Virus record (IMG/VR): IMGVR_UViG_3300045988_153444
Strand: one strand, 5' to 3'
DNA: 32,473 nt
Source of the DNA: a virus
Taxonomy: Duplodnaviria > Heunggongvirae > Uroviricota > Caudoviricetes
The notes below the pieces were generated by a model, which saw only the letters and a program-made list of their open reading frames with translations, ran no database searches and was not told the origin of the DNA. Shown piece by piece: positions 1 to 3,969 of this stretch. The position numbers and the translations under genes are program-made. Position 1 is the stretch's first letter. Every line of letters begins with the position of its first letter.

Positions 1-2
1 AT

Positions 3-98
3 ATTTATATAAAAAGTGCTTTGCAGGTGGGAAAAAATTTCCTATGATTATACCCGAAACCGAGCGATACCCGCCCTGGTTAAACCGGAGATAACCCG
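3..98 (+). promoter_or_regulatory. Promoter/5'UTR module, copy 1 of a duplicated ~88-bp upstream region (copy 2 at 31290-31383)
   Basis: Read directly: near-identical sequence ...tttatataaaaagNgctttRcaggtgggaaaaaatttcctatg(a)ttatacccgaaaccgagcgatacccgccctggttaaaccggaga precedes ATG 99 and ATG 31384. Contains -35-like TTGCAG, -10-like TATGAT and a GGAG about 8 nt before the ATG. Promoter role is inferred. Confidence 0.5.
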
Positions 99-368
99 AT
101 GAAAGTACAAGACCGTGAAGTAGTAAAAAACCTCCTGCAATACCTGACCTCAAAAAACCTGACGGGCAGCGTTGAGTACCGTGAAGCGTTAAAACATTTC
201 AACGTCACTACGGTTTATCGTTGGGAAAACAAACATTCTGAAAGACCGTATGTGGTGGATGTTTTTGCGCCTGATATTGAGTGCGGTTTTGAGCGCCATT
301 CATTCAAAAAGAAACATTCCGCTGATGTTTTTTGTGAGGTTGTATGTGCGGCAGGAGATGATGAGTGA
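99..368 (+). CDS. Hypothetical protein (89 aa)
   Basis: ORF with GGAG 8 nt upstream of ATG; stop overlaps the next ORF start (coupled). No recognisable family motif. Confidence 0.5.
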   Translation: MKVQDREVVKNLLQYLTSKNLTGSVEYREALKHFNVTTVYRWENKHSERPYVVDVFAPDIECGFERHSFKKKHSADVFCEVVCAAGDDE

Positions 369-565
369 TGCGTATTTCCTTCAAACGTGCGACTGAGCAG
401 CAACGCAAAGAGTTCCTGGCTGATGATGTTGCGGCCGTTTATGACCTCATGAAAGAGGTTGTGGAATCAGGAAACTACACGGCGGCAAAGATGCTTAAAC
501 TGCAATTCTTGCTGGGCGACCTGAAATACAAATCCGAAGTTGTCGCCGGACGACGCGAGCATTAA
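368..565 (+). CDS. Hypothetical small protein (65 aa from ATG 368; ORF track starts at GTG 365)
   Basis: AGGAG about 10 nt upstream of ATG 368; followed by a hairpin terminator. Confidence 0.45.
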   Translation: MRISFKRATEQQRKEFLADDVAAVYDLMKEVVESGNYTAAKMLKLQFLLGDLKYKSEVVAGRREH

Positions 566-589
566 ACCGTAACGATAACGAACAACGAG

Positions 590-614
590 CCTCGGCAATT
601 GCCGGGGCTTTTTT
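590..614 (+). terminator. Rho-independent terminator candidate
   Basis: Hairpin cctcggc-aatt-gccgggg followed by cttttttac, read directly. Confidence 0.6.
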
Positions 615-639
615 ACATCCAGACAAAGGAGAACATGGG

Positions 640-939
640 ATGCCTTCGACAAGCACCAAAAAAGAAATGGCGGTTAGTGATGTGCTTTACGCGCTTTCGA
701 CTATATGTGACGGAGCAATGATGAGGATGAAAGTCCTCCATGAAGCATACGGAAAAAGTCACGATGAGGCAGCTAAAGAGTGCCTGAATGAGATTGTGGA
801 CTTCATTGATAGCCATCGTTCAGTTATATCGCGTCAACCGACAGCGTCGTCCATCACGATTAGCGCACCGGTTATCAATATATCAGTAACTGCGGCATGT
901 AAATCAGCAGCGGAAGATGATCGTGCTTATGCCGAGTGA
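640..939 (+). CDS. Hypothetical protein (99 aa)
   Basis: ORF with AGGAG 8 nt upstream of ATG 640; no recognisable motif. Confidence 0.45.
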   Translation: MPSTSTKKEMAVSDVLYALSTICDGAMMRMKVLHEAYGKSHDEAAKECLNEIVDFIDSHRSVISRQPTASSITISAPVINISVTAACKSAAEDDRAYAE

Positions 940-1129
940 TTTGTTCTGGTTTCCGCTTCCAATAAGAGATTTGTTGGTATTTCTAGCTGGCGCTTACGTC
1001 TGGAGAAAAGCGAAAGACACCTCGTTATCTTTGAGGTTTGTCTTAGCTATATCGGTAGGAACCGCGCTGGGGACGGCGTATCTCTTGACATTACTGGAGA
1101 TATTCATTGAAGAATGGATAGTTTCATGA
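917..1129 (+). CDS. Hypothetical small hydrophobic (membrane?) protein, 70 aa
   Basis: ORF overlapping the previous gene by 23 nt; hydrophobic stretches (LLVFLAGAYVW, VLAISVGTALGTAYLLTLL). Confidence 0.35.
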   Translation: MIVLMPSDLFWFPLPIRDLLVFLAGAYVWRKAKDTSLSLRFVLAISVGTALGTAYLLTLLEIFIEEWIVS

Positions 1130-1278
1130 ATGGTGTTGGCATTTTTCTGATGGTTGTGGCCGTGTGTTTTTGTATCTCGCTGGTGGTTATCGCTGGTGTC
1201 CTGTGGCGCATCTTAGTGGCGCAGAGGGCTTTTCGGCTTAAGCGGGAGCAAATGCGCCTTGATTTATATCGAAAGTAA
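1126..1278 (+). CDS. Small membrane protein candidate, 50 aa (not in the supplied ORF track)
   Basis: Hand translation: MNGVGIFLMVVAVCFCISLVVIAGVLWRILVAQRAFRLKREQMRLDLYRK. One predicted transmembrane segment plus a basic C-terminus; ATG overlaps the stop of the preceding ORF; followed by a terminator. Confidence 0.4.
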   Translation: MNGVGIFLMVVAVCFCISLVVIAGVLWRILVAQRAFRLKREQMRLDLYRK

Positions 1279-1285
1279 CTCTTAC

Positions 1286-1315
1286 AGCCTCGCGGTGTCG
1301 CGGGGCTTTTTATTT
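1286..1315 (+). terminator. Rho-independent terminator candidate
   Basis: Hairpin agcctcgcgg-tgt-cgcggggct followed by ttttatttt. Confidence 0.55.
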
Positions 1316-1327
1316 TCAGGTGATGTT

Positions 1328-1738
1328 ATGGAAAAGAAAGAAGATAAACCGATTGCCATTGGTGCAGAGTCTGTTCCGTTTAAGTTTGAATTATCCCAAC
1401 TGGTAACAATGCGTATCAGTGAAGAGTGGGGAGAAGTTCAAGCCCGTGCTCAGTATGCAAATGGCGAAAACCAGTATCTGATTCACTATCAGGCGGCTGA
1501 TGGCCGTGCTACCACAGAGTGGTTCGGTGAGTCGATGCTGATTGCGATGGAGGATAAACGTCATCCTGGCTGCCCTGTTTTTGCCTGTATTGATTTGCCA
1601 GAAGGCGCGGTACTTGAAGACGACAAAGAAGAATGGTCGCCTGATGGCGAACTTGTCATTACCGGAATCGTGGATGGTAAGCCGGAATATTCCCGTATTG
1701 AGGTAAATAACGGCCACATCTGTTTGATCCCTGCGTAA
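1328..1738 (+). CDS. Hypothetical acidic protein (136 aa from ATG 1328; ORF track extends to 1259)
   Basis: AGGTGA 7 nt upstream of ATG 1328; no family recognised. Confidence 0.55.
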   Translation: MEKKEDKPIAIGAESVPFKFELSQLVTMRISEEWGEVQARAQYANGENQYLIHYQAADGRATTEWFGESMLIAMEDKRHPGCPVFACIDLPEGAVLEDDKEEWSPDGELVITGIVDGKPEYSRIEVNNGHICLIPA

Positions 1739-1972
1739 CGCATTACAGCAGCTCTTGTGCTAATCAGGGGCTGCGATAATGCGCAAACCAAAGCTGCCTC
1801 ATTAACTCCTGCTCGCTGTGGAGTTAATGCTGGTGGCTTTTTTATTACTGGAAGGTGGGCGACCGCCGTCAGTTGCGACCTGACGACAGTCATTCATACC
1901 CACAGGGTGCCGTGGATACAAACCGAGGCCCACTTGCTTGCACAAGCGAGGGGATTTTAGCGGATAAACGGC

Positions 1973-2596
1973 ATGACAAAACATCTTAATGTGGTTTCTT
2001 TACCACTTTCTGTGTTGATTGGTTATGAAAAGAACGCTCGCACACACTCCGTGGAGCAGGTAGATCAGATTGTTGCCAGCATACAGGAGTACGGATGGAC
2101 TAATCCGATCCTGATAGACGAGAACAACGTTGTAATTGCTGGTCATGGTCGAATTGCTGCGGCCACTCAGTTGGGGATGGATGATGTTCCCTGCATTGTT
2201 CTGGCTGGGCTAACGGAGAATCAGAAGAAGGCATATCGTCTGGCCGACAACCGTATTCCGCTGAATGCTGGTTGGGATGAAGAGTTGTTAAGCGCGGAGC
2301 TTGCAGATCTTGCGGCCGATGATTTTGCTCTGGACTCAATTGGTTTTACTCAGCGCGAACTGGATAACTTATTGAGTGCGGCGGTCTACGATGACACAGA
2401 GGGTATGGATATCCCATTTGAGAAGGATGAGGCCAAATCAGGCGTAAAAGTTCAGTACCTGTCATTTGGAGGTCATAAAATCCCGGCAACGGATGAGGAA
2501 GCGGATCGTTTTGACTGCGCGGTGTCTCGTTATGTTGATGATAATGGCAGCTATATCGGATTTGTATCCGCATTGCTGGCTGGGGAGGTGTGCTGA
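1973..2596 (+). CDS. ParB-like nuclease (ParB N-terminal) domain protein
   Basis: ParB/Srx-type N-terminal pattern (…NPILIDENNVVIAGHGRIAAATQLGMDDVPCIVL…KKAYRLADN…). Paralog of the 5262-5852 product. Confidence 0.8.
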   Translation: MTKHLNVVSLPLSVLIGYEKNARTHSVEQVDQIVASIQEYGWTNPILIDENNVVIAGHGRIAAATQLGMDDVPCIVLAGLTENQKKAYRLADNRIPLNAGWDEELLSAELADLAADDFALDSIGFTQRELDNLLSAAVYDDTEGMDIPFEKDEAKSGVKVQYLSFGGHKIPATDEEADRFDCAVSRYVDDNGSYIGFVSALLAGEVC

Positions 2597-3969
2597 TGCT
2601 TCACCTGAATTACGACATAACGCACCTACGCGGCGCGGAATATAACCCGCGTTTTATCGGTGAGGATGATCTTGCGAGGCTGGCGGAAAGCGTCAGGGAG
2701 CTGGGGCTTGTGAAGCCATTGATAGTGCGCGGCGATTTGCTGGTGGCGGGACACCAAAGGACGAAGGCGCTACGTAAGTTGGGAATAACGCGTGCTGCGG
2801 TGTATGTGTTGCCCTGTGAAACGACGGTATACGACGAAGTACGGTTTAACCAACTGCATAACGGAACGGATTTTGATAGCGGAGATGAGCGTTGCAGGGT
2901 GTCCGGTCTGGAAGATAAGCATGGTTTTGTTCAGGTATCGGCAAGCCAGATCTCAGGCAATATGCGCGCGAAAATGGCATATGTTCGAAAGAACATAGCG
3001 GAACTGGTTATCAAGTATGGTCCGTGGGGTGGTTGTGTTGCTACTCAGTCTGGTGAGGTTATTCACTGTGCTCAGTATGCATTAGCAGCGAAAATGACGC
3101 GCACACCGCTAACGGTGTTTGTGATCCCTGATGTTGAGAAGGAAAAATACCAAAGTTATCTGAATAAAACTTATGGTGTATTTGAGTATTCTCATCTGGA
3201 GAAAACAACATACATCCAGACGTATGCGCAGCTTATGCGGTTGCGTAATGGTGGCAGCCTGAAATCAAACCTGTATGAGTCGTTGATCCTCCCGATCATT
3301 GCCAAGACGCCAAGAGGAATTGATTTTGGTTCGGGGCAGGGAGACTACGCGCGAATGCTCAGGGCAAAGGGATATAACCTGCATGATCTCGAGCTTTTCC
3401 GCCGTAAGGGCGCTGGAAACACTCTGGATAGGACCGCAACAAACCGGATGATTGATACGCTGGTGGACGACTTAAAAACGCGAGGGCGTTACGACTACGT
3501 GATTTGCGATAGCGTTTTGAACTCGGTCGATAGTGTCGAGGCTGAATGGTCTGTTCTGACGGTTCTGAAAGGCCTGTGTAAAGCTGGTGGGTCAATATTC
3601 TTTTCTGGTCGTAGCCGTGGAGAGCTGGAAACAGTCCTGAAGCAAACACAAGCGGCGAGTTCCAAAAGCCGGCTTTATTTTATTGATCATAACGGTTTTA
3701 CCGCGTTGTACCGGAAGGGGCACTGGTTTTACCAGAAGTTTCACTCTGATGATGAAGTGAAGCAGTTGTGTCGTGTACATGGTTTCAGGATTAAGCGGTC
3801 AATATTCAACTGTAAGAGCTGGTATTTGCACGTCATTAACGATGATTCCCTTAGTTGGGCGAGTCTGGAGAAAGCTGTTCGTTTTGAGTTTGAGTTGCCG
3901 TTGCCTGGTGGTTCAACAATCGGACGATCTGATGATGTGCTGGCGGCTTTCCGGCCGCTGATTAAGTAG
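2596..3969 (+). CDS. ParB-like N-terminal domain fused to a class I SAM-dependent methyltransferase fold
   Basis: N-terminus KPLIVRGDLLVAGHQRTKALRKLG (ParB-like). C-terminal half has motif I IDFGSGQGDY, an acidic post-I residue (HDLE), YDYVICDSVL and GGSIFFSG. No (D/N/S)PP(Y/F/W) amino-methyltransferase motif was found. ATG 2596 overlaps the upstream stop (TGATG) with GGGGAGG SD. Confidence 0.75.
   Translation: MLHLNYDITHLRGAEYNPRFIGEDDLARLAESVRELGLVKPLIVRGDLLVAGHQRTKALRKLGITRAAVYVLPCETTVYDEVRFNQLHNGTDFDSGDERCRVSGLEDKHGFVQVSASQISGNMRAKMAYVRKNIAELVIKYGPWGGCVATQSGEVIHCAQYALAAKMTRTPLTVFVIPDVEKEKYQSYLNKTYGVFEYSHLEKTTYIQTYAQLMRLRNGGSLKSNLYESLILPIIAKTPRGIDFGSGQGDYARMLRAKGYNLHDLELFRRKGAGNTLDRTATNRMIDTLVDDLKTRGRYDYVICDSVLNSVDSVEAEWSVLTVLKGLCKAGGSIFFSGRSRGELETVLKQTQAASSKSRLYFIDHNGFTALYRKGHWFYQKFHSDDEVKQLCRVHGFRIKRSIFNCKSWYLHVINDDSLSWASLEKAVRFEFELPLPGGSTIGRSDDVLAAFRPLIK

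Follow-up and report, generated by a model that had tools for sequence, protein, structure and literature searches.

Within a 32,473-nucleotide (nt) stretch of viral DNA (IMG/VR record IMGVR_UViG_3300045988_153444; the whole stretch is hereafter the window), which is part of a ~48-kb Escherichia phage-plasmid carrying myovirus genes together with RepA and ParA, we identified two tandem genes for small membrane proteins, ORF1 and ORF2. They are the second and third members of a unit of overlapping genes that opens with a 99-amino-acid (aa) upstream gene and is enclosed by two intrinsic terminators. Comparison with distant relatives establishes both, at the level of sequence, as genuine genes, and their products are very probably real, co-expressed membrane proteins. 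The combined reading, in which this membrane-protein unit is real and also serves in phage conflict, is one that we consider quite possible, somewhat short of an even call. An earlier note on this DNA had placed two tandem small membrane-protein ORFs at 917-1129 and 1126-1278; both are borne out, the start at 1126 lying inside a longer frame, 1114-1278. The unit and its boundaries are as follows.

587-616, + strand: terminator T1, a stem-loop at 587-610 (10 pairs, 7 of them GC) followed by TTTTTT; left boundary of the unit
640-939, + strand: upstream gene, a 99-aa soluble protein (phrog_8319) with the Shine-Dalgarno sequence AAAGGAG at 625-631 and a 17-nt overlap with the ORF1 start
923-1129, + strand: ORF1, 68 aa from its most likely start, GTG 923, with the Shine-Dalgarno sequence GGAAG at 912-916; alternative ATG starts at 917 and 929
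1114-1278, + strand: ORF2, 54 aa from ATG 1114, or 50 aa from ATG 1126
1286-1315, + strand: terminator T2, a stem-loop at 1286-1307 (9 pairs) followed by TTTTTATTTT, 8 nt past the ORF2 stop

Tiny membrane ORFs are abundant in phage and plasmid genomes, and annotation pipelines call such ORFs inconsistently. Already known were database entries for these proteins as hypothetical and, in kind, the small accessory membrane proteins of temperate phages. New here are the proof of both genes, their corrected starts, their pairing, the three-gene unit bounded by terminators, the distant homologues and a pattern of retention combined with fast change. A firm annotation is thereby gained for an element that ~1.3% of complete E. 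coli genomes carry, the reference strain ATCC 25922 being one of the carriers.

Distant relatives and variation of ORF1 and ORF2

By exhaustive HMMER search of an ORF1 profile against 1.84 billion representative proteins, we found two distant ORF1 homologues, P0081 (67 aa) and P0082 (72 aa); word-indexed protein searches returned close relatives only, at 73% identity or above. The contigs that encode the two homologues, L120 and L121, are syntenic relatives of the element, with identities to the window of 81% for ParB1, 90-91% for the ParB2-methyltransferase and 80-86% for the next gene. A third locus, L127, on a 47-kb IMG/VR contig, is of the L120 type. The earlier note had staked its proposal on conservation of the ORF in related elements, and ORF1 and ORF2 homologues occur at all three loci, the overlapping ORF2 homologue following directly on that of ORF1.

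L120, 1184-1336: ORF2 homologue of 50 aa, sharing 13 nt with the ORF1 homologue
L121, 1644-1811: ORF2 homologue of 55 aa, sharing 28 nt with the ORF1 homologue; missed by the gene caller
L127, 3159-3311: ORF2 homologue in syntenic position

The homologues are 43-47% (ORF1) and 30-43% (ORF2) identical to their window counterparts. This similarity lies above that of shuffled sequences by 15-23 standard deviations for ORF1 and 4.4-7.7 for ORF2, the shuffles keeping the composition of the N-terminus, transmembrane (TM) segment and tail separately. Between lineages, the three proteins of the unit are 19-47% identical and the backbone proteins 81-91%. Only the proposed ORF1 and ORF2 frames stay open in each of the three lineages, and the same frames give the highest cross-lineage similarity, the alternative frames being full of stops. 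We take both genes as established because of the distant synteny, the shuffle statistics, the frame test, the conserved starts and substitutions that keep hydrophobicity.

Variation within the E. coli family was compared across 20 distinct haplotypes from plasmids, phages and metagenomes. Of 44 changes in ORF1, 19 are synonymous, where 13.2 would be expected (P = 0.035). The 14 changes in the TM region of ORF2 are without exception synonymous or hydrophobic swaps (P = 0.014), and none of them falls at codon position 2 (P = 0.02). As gene evidence, these within-family tests are only moderately strong. The module has been swapped as one block, with breakpoints at 930/936 and 1251/1256; there are two alternative left flanks, with the 99-aa or a 151-aa upstream gene, and three alternative right flanks, in all of which ORF2 remains open at 50-54 aa, counted from ATG 1126. 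Two of the ORF2 tails, RLDLYRK and LIDKFRQ, are homologous but diverged: they agree in length, stop position and residue character at ~50% nucleotide identity by manual count, with a change of Arg codon from CGA to AGG among the differences.

The neighbouring ParB region occurs in 71 complete E. coli genomes, of which 69 also have ORF1-ORF2. Intact ORF2 stands on several thousand contigs and its commonest frameshifted form on 25, as counted from cluster membership and not from cluster representatives. The ORF2 frameshifts are independent and comprise a 13-bp tandem duplication, 1-nt deletions and others. The ratio of nonsynonymous to synonymous polymorphism (pN/pS) is 1.36 for the N-domain of the upstream gene, 0.53 for ORF1 and 1.19 for ORF2, with 0.05-0.36 for neighbouring genes. 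The module is near-universally retained, partly dispensable and diverging much faster than its surroundings.

Short direct repeats at window 1178-1200 and 938-975 drive the indels in ORF2 and ORF1, respectively. The commonest ORF2 frameshift (P0014, 25 contigs), read by comparing P0014 with the window sequence, is the 13-bp tandem duplication, which lies between GCTGGTG repeats at 1178-1200. In pEC488-4, a 30-nt deletion in ORF1 falls between GATTTGTT repeats at 938-975; one other plasmid has the same deletion, judged from identical match boundaries.

Could the two frames be chance ORFs, or decaying remnants without function? A within-family pN/pS of ~1.2 for ORF2, the occasional frameshifts and deletions and an inconsistent RefSeq annotation might be read in this way. 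However, the comparative data effectively refute it: an adjacent, overlapping pair persists at 30-47% identity, where the DNA has diverged far beyond the neutral retention of an ORF, stops crowd the alternative frames, substitutions keep hydrophobicity and the start contexts are conserved.

Gene models and predicted topology of ORF1 and ORF2

The open-reading-frame listing gives ORF1 as 917-1129 on the + strand (70 aa). GTG 923, which yields 68 aa, is most likely the start, since the ATG of distant ORF1 homologues aligns with it and since the GTG and its Shine-Dalgarno sequence are kept in both left contexts. In the window, GGAAG sits 6 nt upstream of this GTG; in the L030 variant, which has a different upstream gene, the same GTG occurs at 1494 and is preceded at 7 nt by GAAGGA. 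Gene callers of the Prodigal type use the 68-aa form on several hundred contigs, and ORF1 has been called, mostly at this length, in some GenBank submissions and metagenome gene calls; none of the RefSeq records inspected annotates it.

The ORF1 protein has one clear hydrophobic segment, at residues ~38-61. The earlier description of the frame at 917-1129 as hydrophobic stands for this segment, in only moderate degree and from the probable later start: the Kyte-Doolittle peak is 1.90, which ranks 25th among the window's 290 stop-to-stop ORFs with 45 aa or more. A weaker N-terminal hydrophobic segment (~7-27) includes conserved Arg/Lys. The protein is predicted to form an inner-membrane hairpin of two helices joined by the basic loop RKAKD. 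The second helix carries a conserved small-xxx-small motif, in which residues 46, 48 and 50 are small in all lineages (G/A, A and G/A) and which is therefore read as a helix-packing motif. Its C-terminus, EEWIVS, is short and acidic. The AlphaFold2 model contains three helices at low confidence, with a predicted local distance difference test score (pLDDT) of 61. A Trp-to-stop change shortens ORF1 in the L028 variant, the new TGA overlapping ATG 1114.

For ORF2, the earlier note had given a start at 1126 and a length of 50 aa. This reading is in frame and is the RefSeq call (WP_001523048.1, hypothetical). ATG 1126 forms an ATGA (1126-1129) with the ORF1 stop, and the overlap on which that note based its coupling to the previous stop is real; no member of the E. 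coli family lacks this ATG, which may serve as a start too. The ancestral start, however, is probably ATG 1114, giving a 54-aa form that shares 16 nt with ORF1, because the ATG-GAT of the homologues aligns at 1114-1119 and they lack a Met at the 1126 position. Distant ORF2 homologues begin with MD, and the ATGGAT start falls within invariant Trp-Ile codons of ORF1 in each of the three lineages. The 50-aa frame is indeed absent from the ORF track, as had been remarked, through the effect of a length cutoff; ORF2 does appear in some RefSeq records, and, in those inspected, ORF1 is the unannotated one of the two. RefSeq calls of ORF2 are inconsistent, with WP_001523048.1 present in some records and omitted from one that is 100% identical. 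The same DNA is thus annotated differently for ORF2 in NZ_CP032259.1 (41253-41405) and NZ_CP069971.1.

In the ORF2 protein, a short acidic N-terminus leads into a single TM segment of ~24 residues, after which comes a basic juxtamembrane helix that is conserved, RRI[LF]VxQR...[KR]RE. Residues F11, L12, A16 and V17 of the TM helix are conserved across lineages, as is the juxtamembrane pattern R-I-x-V-x-Q-R...R-E. Its 19-residue Kyte-Doolittle peak, 3.13, is the highest among the 290 window ORFs, its net charge of +6 lies entirely within the C-terminal tail, and AlphaFold2 predicts one continuous helix over residues 2-49 (mean pLDDT 85), in agreement with the single TM helix and basic C-terminus first read by hand. 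The tail, RILVAQRAFRLKREQMRLDLYRK, contains no Cys and, given its net charge of about +6, is predicted to be cytoplasmic. RNA folding of 1080-1320 makes the terminator alone visible (z = -1.7).

By the positive-inside rule, ORF1 would be an N-out/C-out hairpin with the basic RKAKD loop in the cytoplasm, and ORF2 an N-out/C-in protein with a +6 cationic cytoplasmic helix. The two probably assemble into one heteromeric three-helix membrane complex, as suggested by their constant co-occurrence, their presumed coupled translation and the small-xxx-small motif of ORF1.

Neither protein matched a sequence in the PDB. The sub-threshold Pfam matches of ORF2 and its homologues are to generic TM families (DUF5362, DUF6773, FtsL and Peptidase_M56), those to FtsL and BlaR1 reflecting TM-plus-basic-helix composition. 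An FtsL-like division protein was considered and rejected: the Pfam FtsL model matched the L121 homologue alone, at 20.3 bits where the cut-off is 22.9, a comparison of the ORF2 alignment with E. coli FtsL by hhalign gave 1% probability over 8 columns, and BLASTP gave no match.

The three-gene unit and its place on the phage-plasmid

The order of upstream gene, ORF1 and ORF2, with a terminator right after ORF2, is kept in three lineages. On the left, the T1 stem-loop lies 30 nt before the upstream gene; on the right, the terminator reported earlier after ORF2 is present, its stem at 1286-1307 being followed by a T-run 8 nt past the stop. L121 has terminators on both sides of the unit, the downstream one at 1810-1828, and L127 has its downstream terminator at the same place after ORF2 (3310-3328); a terminator ahead of the unit was observed in the window and in L121. 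At the junction of the upstream gene with ORF1, the overlap is 17 nt in the window and 11 nt in L121; L120 has an ATGA there, and in L030 the two genes are 2 nt apart. The ORF1 and ORF2 frames share nucleotides in every lineage: 16 or 4 in the window, according to the start, 13 in L120 and 28 in L121. These overlapping starts and stops would give coupled translation of all three genes.

The stretch that spans T1, the Shine-Dalgarno sequence and the start of the upstream gene is near-identical in the window (587-642) and L121 (806-860), and the coding sequence just past it has only ~20-25% protein identity between these divergent lineages. The conservation of T1 suggests a regulatory role, for example as a regulated terminator or a processing site.

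Homologues of the upstream gene (phrog_8319/14707) are limited to this phage-plasmid family, in which it takes lengths of 99, 151, 201, ~246 and 323 aa (window 640-939, L030 1036-1491, L121 858-1463, L127 2231-2971 and L120 25-996). All forms have a common N-terminal domain of ~65 residues. The 99-aa form and the forms of 201-323 aa also share a C-terminal tail like SITI(S/N)APAVTI, and the 99-aa form looks like the N-domain fused to this tail via an internal deletion.

No promoter was found between T1 and the first gene of the unit by sigma-70 consensus scan, a method that weak, non-consensus or activator-dependent promoters can escape, and expression may therefore rely on read-through from the late operon; transcription probably enters the unit from upstream in this way. 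A Q-type antiterminator was not recognised upstream of the lysis genes. The sole + strand sigma-70-like match in the first 2.1 kb, TTTGCA-17-TATGAT at window 20-48, sits upstream of a two-gene unit (99-565) that terminates at T1, and the count of promoter-like matches in the region is not above shuffle expectation.

Window bases 600-1800 are 100% identical to the 49.9-kb circular plasmid NZ_CP032259.1 of E. coli AR_0067. Similar DNA was found in 69 of 5,426 complete E. coli genomes, where 70 of the 71 matching places are plasmids of ~47-50 kb. E. coli ATCC 25922 and the Yersinia phages vB_YpM_39, vB_YpM_41 and vB_YpM_44 also carry similar DNA, the last two being deposited as phage genomes with Y. 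pestis EV76 as host. In ATCC 25922 the element is on plasmid NZ_CP009073.1, where ORF2 has the locus tag DR76_RS29780. Two scans of GTDB species-representative genomes did not find the locus. We assign the element to the phage-plasmids because a full myovirus structural set occurs with RepA, ParA and a RelE/ParE module on one plasmid record. The group name pSLy3 was dropped for it, the literature placing the pSLy3 group within the SSU5 supergroup. Literature searches on related phage names and the ORF2 RefSeq accessions returned nothing relevant.

All genes of the region are on the + strand, and the GC content of the module is like that of its surroundings. ORF1 and ORF2 have lysis genes on one side and genes for a ParB-like nuclease/methyltransferase and terminase on the other, so that the accessory-region location supposed earlier proves to be a site between the lysis and packaging genes of a phage-plasmid. 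In the coordinates of the plasmid record, the left side reads as follows.

37366-38848, + strand: complete lysis cassette with Phage_holin_8, Phage_holin_3_7, GH108 endolysin and Rz-like spanin
between cassette and unit, + strand: a tRNA, an MT-A70 methyltransferase, further small genes (two ORFs in the window) and T1
40767, + strand: start of the three-gene unit, ~1.9 kb past the end of the lysis cassette

This setting bears on a role in lysis timing, in which ORF2, ORF1 or both would be late-expressed accessory modulators, holin- or antiholin-like, of the element's own holins. The unit lies on the strand of the lysis cassette and only ~1.9 kb downstream, its transcription is probably shared with the late genes given that no promoter of its own was detected, and its small size, TM content and charged tail are generic features of holins; ORF1, with two TM segments in 68 aa, has the size of a class II holin. 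In other prophages, moreover, the 136-aa gene that follows the unit has homologues placed a short way behind a spanin gene or other small membrane ORFs. We nonetheless consider this role unlikely. Two recognised holins, matching Phage_holin_8 and Phage_holin_3_7 strongly, are already present on the element with an endolysin and a spanin, and the unit is separated from them by the tRNA, the methyltransferase, two other genes and a strong terminator. Neither ORF1, ORF2 nor their distant homologues matched a holin family in Pfam or the 'lysis' category of PHROGs, ORF2 is truncated in the Yersinia phages vB_YpM_41 and vB_YpM_44, and the short, acidic C-terminus of ORF1 is unlike typical holin tails. 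The holin/antiholin option offered in the earlier note is weakened to the same extent, and because a complete lysis cassette is present elsewhere on the element, ORF1 and ORF2 are probably not part of its own lysis machinery.

A membrane-depolarising toxin is a less probable reading again, and one that we would call improbable: ORF2 would be a type I-toxin-like or abortive-infection peptide whose translation would be controlled by ORF1, in the way that mok controls hok, and whose activity would be restrained by an unseen RNA or by co-encoded proteins. In its length of 50-54 aa, its single, strongly hydrophobic helix and its cationic tail, ORF2 is like many small membrane toxins. Its start lies within the end of ORF1 and would thus depend on ORF1 translation, and the independent frameshifts by which several lineages have lost the tail could be the mark of a cost to the carrier. 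Yet ORF2 is the third gene of a co-directional, overlapping unit with an obligate partner and not a stand-alone locus, a RelE/ParE-type addiction module is already on the element, and frameshifted copies are rare (~25 contigs against several thousand intact). The proposal of a type I toxin had come with the suggestion to search for an antisense RNA over the start; no minus-strand promoter-like site was found in 900-1320, nor in L121 or L127, by a consensus scan that can miss weak promoters, and Rfam gave no antitoxin RNA and no match of any kind, whether in 1-3000 at E<=1 or across the whole window at gathering score. At E<=0.1, no Pfam family, including Hok/Gef, matched ORF2 or its distant homologues, in line with the earlier failure to recognise Hok or Ldr signatures; the Pfam library presumably includes Hok/Gef, Ldr, TisB and Ibs models. 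PADLOC likewise gave no match at E<=1 for the three proteins of the unit or their neighbours.

Two neighbouring features were observed to the right of the unit.

1328-1738, + strand: gene for a 136-aa protein (phrog_1935)
1739-1972: intergenic region upstream of the ParB-like nuclease gene

The 136-aa gene has >100 homologues, at 67-81% identity, on other prophage contigs (L044-L119). In L119, where the context is recognisable, the homologue lies shortly downstream of the spanin gene, and in front of the homologues there are often unrelated small TM ORFs, together with an ORF of ~60 aa that is lipoprotein-like and has an LVGC lipobox. The position before this gene looks like a general hotspot for small membrane proteins. 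The intergenic region (L120 1640-1867, L121 2157-2384) has 87% mean column identity and is far more conserved than the nearby ORF1 and ORF2 proteins (30-47% identity). RNAalifold on these three sequences only predicted 74 pairs, 14 of them with compensatory double changes, and no Rfam match was found for the region. It is a candidate structured leader or non-coding RNA.

A tentative conflict role and comparison with known systems

We speculate that ORF1 and ORF2 form a dispensable, fast-evolving accessory module that would act on the cell envelope in phage-host or phage-phage conflict. In its likeliest form, the pair would block an inner-membrane step of a competitor in the manner of an exclusion system, or would modulate a host membrane protein. 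An exclusion factor is a plausible reading because fast evolution and near-universal retention both fit it. As an assignment of function, a conflict or exclusion role remains tentative. A fuller version is more doubtful still: the unit would be an undescribed membrane conflict module of phage-plasmids, serving exclusion, defence or counter-defence, in which the length-variable soluble protein confers specificity, ORF1-ORF2 provide a three-helix inner-membrane effector, and the divergence reflects an arms race and not relaxed constraint.

Several observations weigh against a conflict role. The ORF2 pN/pS of ~1.2 is equally expected from relaxed constraint, the basic tail of ORF2 has been lost through frameshift in several lineages, including vB_YpM_41 and vB_YpM_44, and the in-frame deletion in pEC488-4 takes 10 residues from ORF1. 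The sigma-70 scan gave no promoter-like match between T1 and the first gene in the window, L121 or L127, nor any promoter from which the unit would be expressed in a lysogen, and late expression by read-through is a poor match for exclusion genes of the classical, prophage-expressed kind. Pfam, PHROGs, NCBIfam and PADLOC did not recognise ORF1 or ORF2, the sub-threshold matches being ones of TM composition only. The three-helix complex and both topologies are predictions, and the ORF1 model has a pLDDT of 61.

A role in lysogenic conversion would place the pair outside conflict altogether, as a tuner of a host inner-membrane complex, of transporter or sensor kinase style, to the advantage of the carrier cell. 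N-out/C-in single-pass proteins with a cytoplasmic amphipathic tail are numerous among small membrane proteins of regulatory function, and the predicted arrangement of ORF2 matches theirs; the module is, in addition, near-universal in an element that resides in clinical E. coli in the plasmid state. Set against this, no promoter was found that would serve in the plasmid state, such rapid divergence is unusual for the partner of a conserved host protein, and there is no candidate target. We regard this role as rather doubtful, below lysis timing and above a toxin.

The conflict role thus ranks first and lysis timing second, with a type I-toxin-like function lower and chance ORFs effectively excluded. 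Near-universal retention combined with rapid divergence makes the pair a reasonable candidate for a conflict function, and one that is simple to test; for the present, these are two ordinary hypothetical proteins.

The nearest functional analogues are small inner-membrane exclusion proteins, coupled toxins of the hok/mok type and small holins, and the unit, when compared with the last two, fell outside both. Small holins such as S21 (class II, two TM segments, ~70 aa) and T7 gp17.5 (one TM segment) resemble ORF1 and ORF2 in size and TM count, and ORF2 further shares with them a highly charged C-terminal tail and the strand of the lysis genes. A TM segment followed by a charged, hydrophilic C-terminus is found in ORF2 and not in ORF1, whose C-terminus is short and acidic. 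Unlike small holins, the unit is not adjacent to the endolysin gene, and the element has two recognised holins. From the truncation in vB_YpM_41 and vB_YpM_44, we infer that ORF2 is dispensable for propagation as a phage.

With hok/mok/sok, the likeness lies in a protein of ~50 aa with an N-terminal TM segment, a start buried in an upstream frame and a plasmid-like carrier, and ORF2 has the size and hydrophobicity of type I toxins (<60 aa, hydrophobic). The Hok tail, however, is periplasmic and contains Cys, whereas that of ORF2 is basic, probably cytoplasmic and free of Cys. Likewise, mok spans most of hok, whereas ORF1 is a conserved membrane protein sharing only 13-28 nt with ORF2. In contrast to hok/mok/sok, neither a Sok-like RNA nor an antisense promoter was found for ORF2, nor a match to a Pfam toxin family.

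Morons, in the concept of Hendrix and Juhala, are autonomous accessory genes inserted in the late operons of temperate phages. A conserved terminator follows the unit, and the sigma-70 consensus scan, which non-consensus or activator-dependent promoters can escape, gave no promoter of its own. The unit differs from morons in that its GC content is not distinct from that of its surroundings and in that it is near-universal, with no presence/absence polymorphism (69 of 71 E. coli genomes, and the divergent lineages too). It resembles morons as a set of accessory genes between essential late blocks, with intrinsic terminators at its ends and mosaic flanks.

T4 Imm and HK97 gp15 are small phage inner-membrane proteins of superinfection exclusion, with which we liken the pair in general design and not by sequence comparison or any established sequence relationship. 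They are expressed early or from the prophage, whereas the present unit has no detected promoter, and unlike them it consists of an obligate membrane pair with a co-translated soluble partner. Conflict genes are generally fast-evolving. In common with T4 Imm and HK97 gp15, ORF1 and ORF2 encode short phage accessory proteins that would work in the inner membrane, with one or two TM helices and no enzymatic domain.

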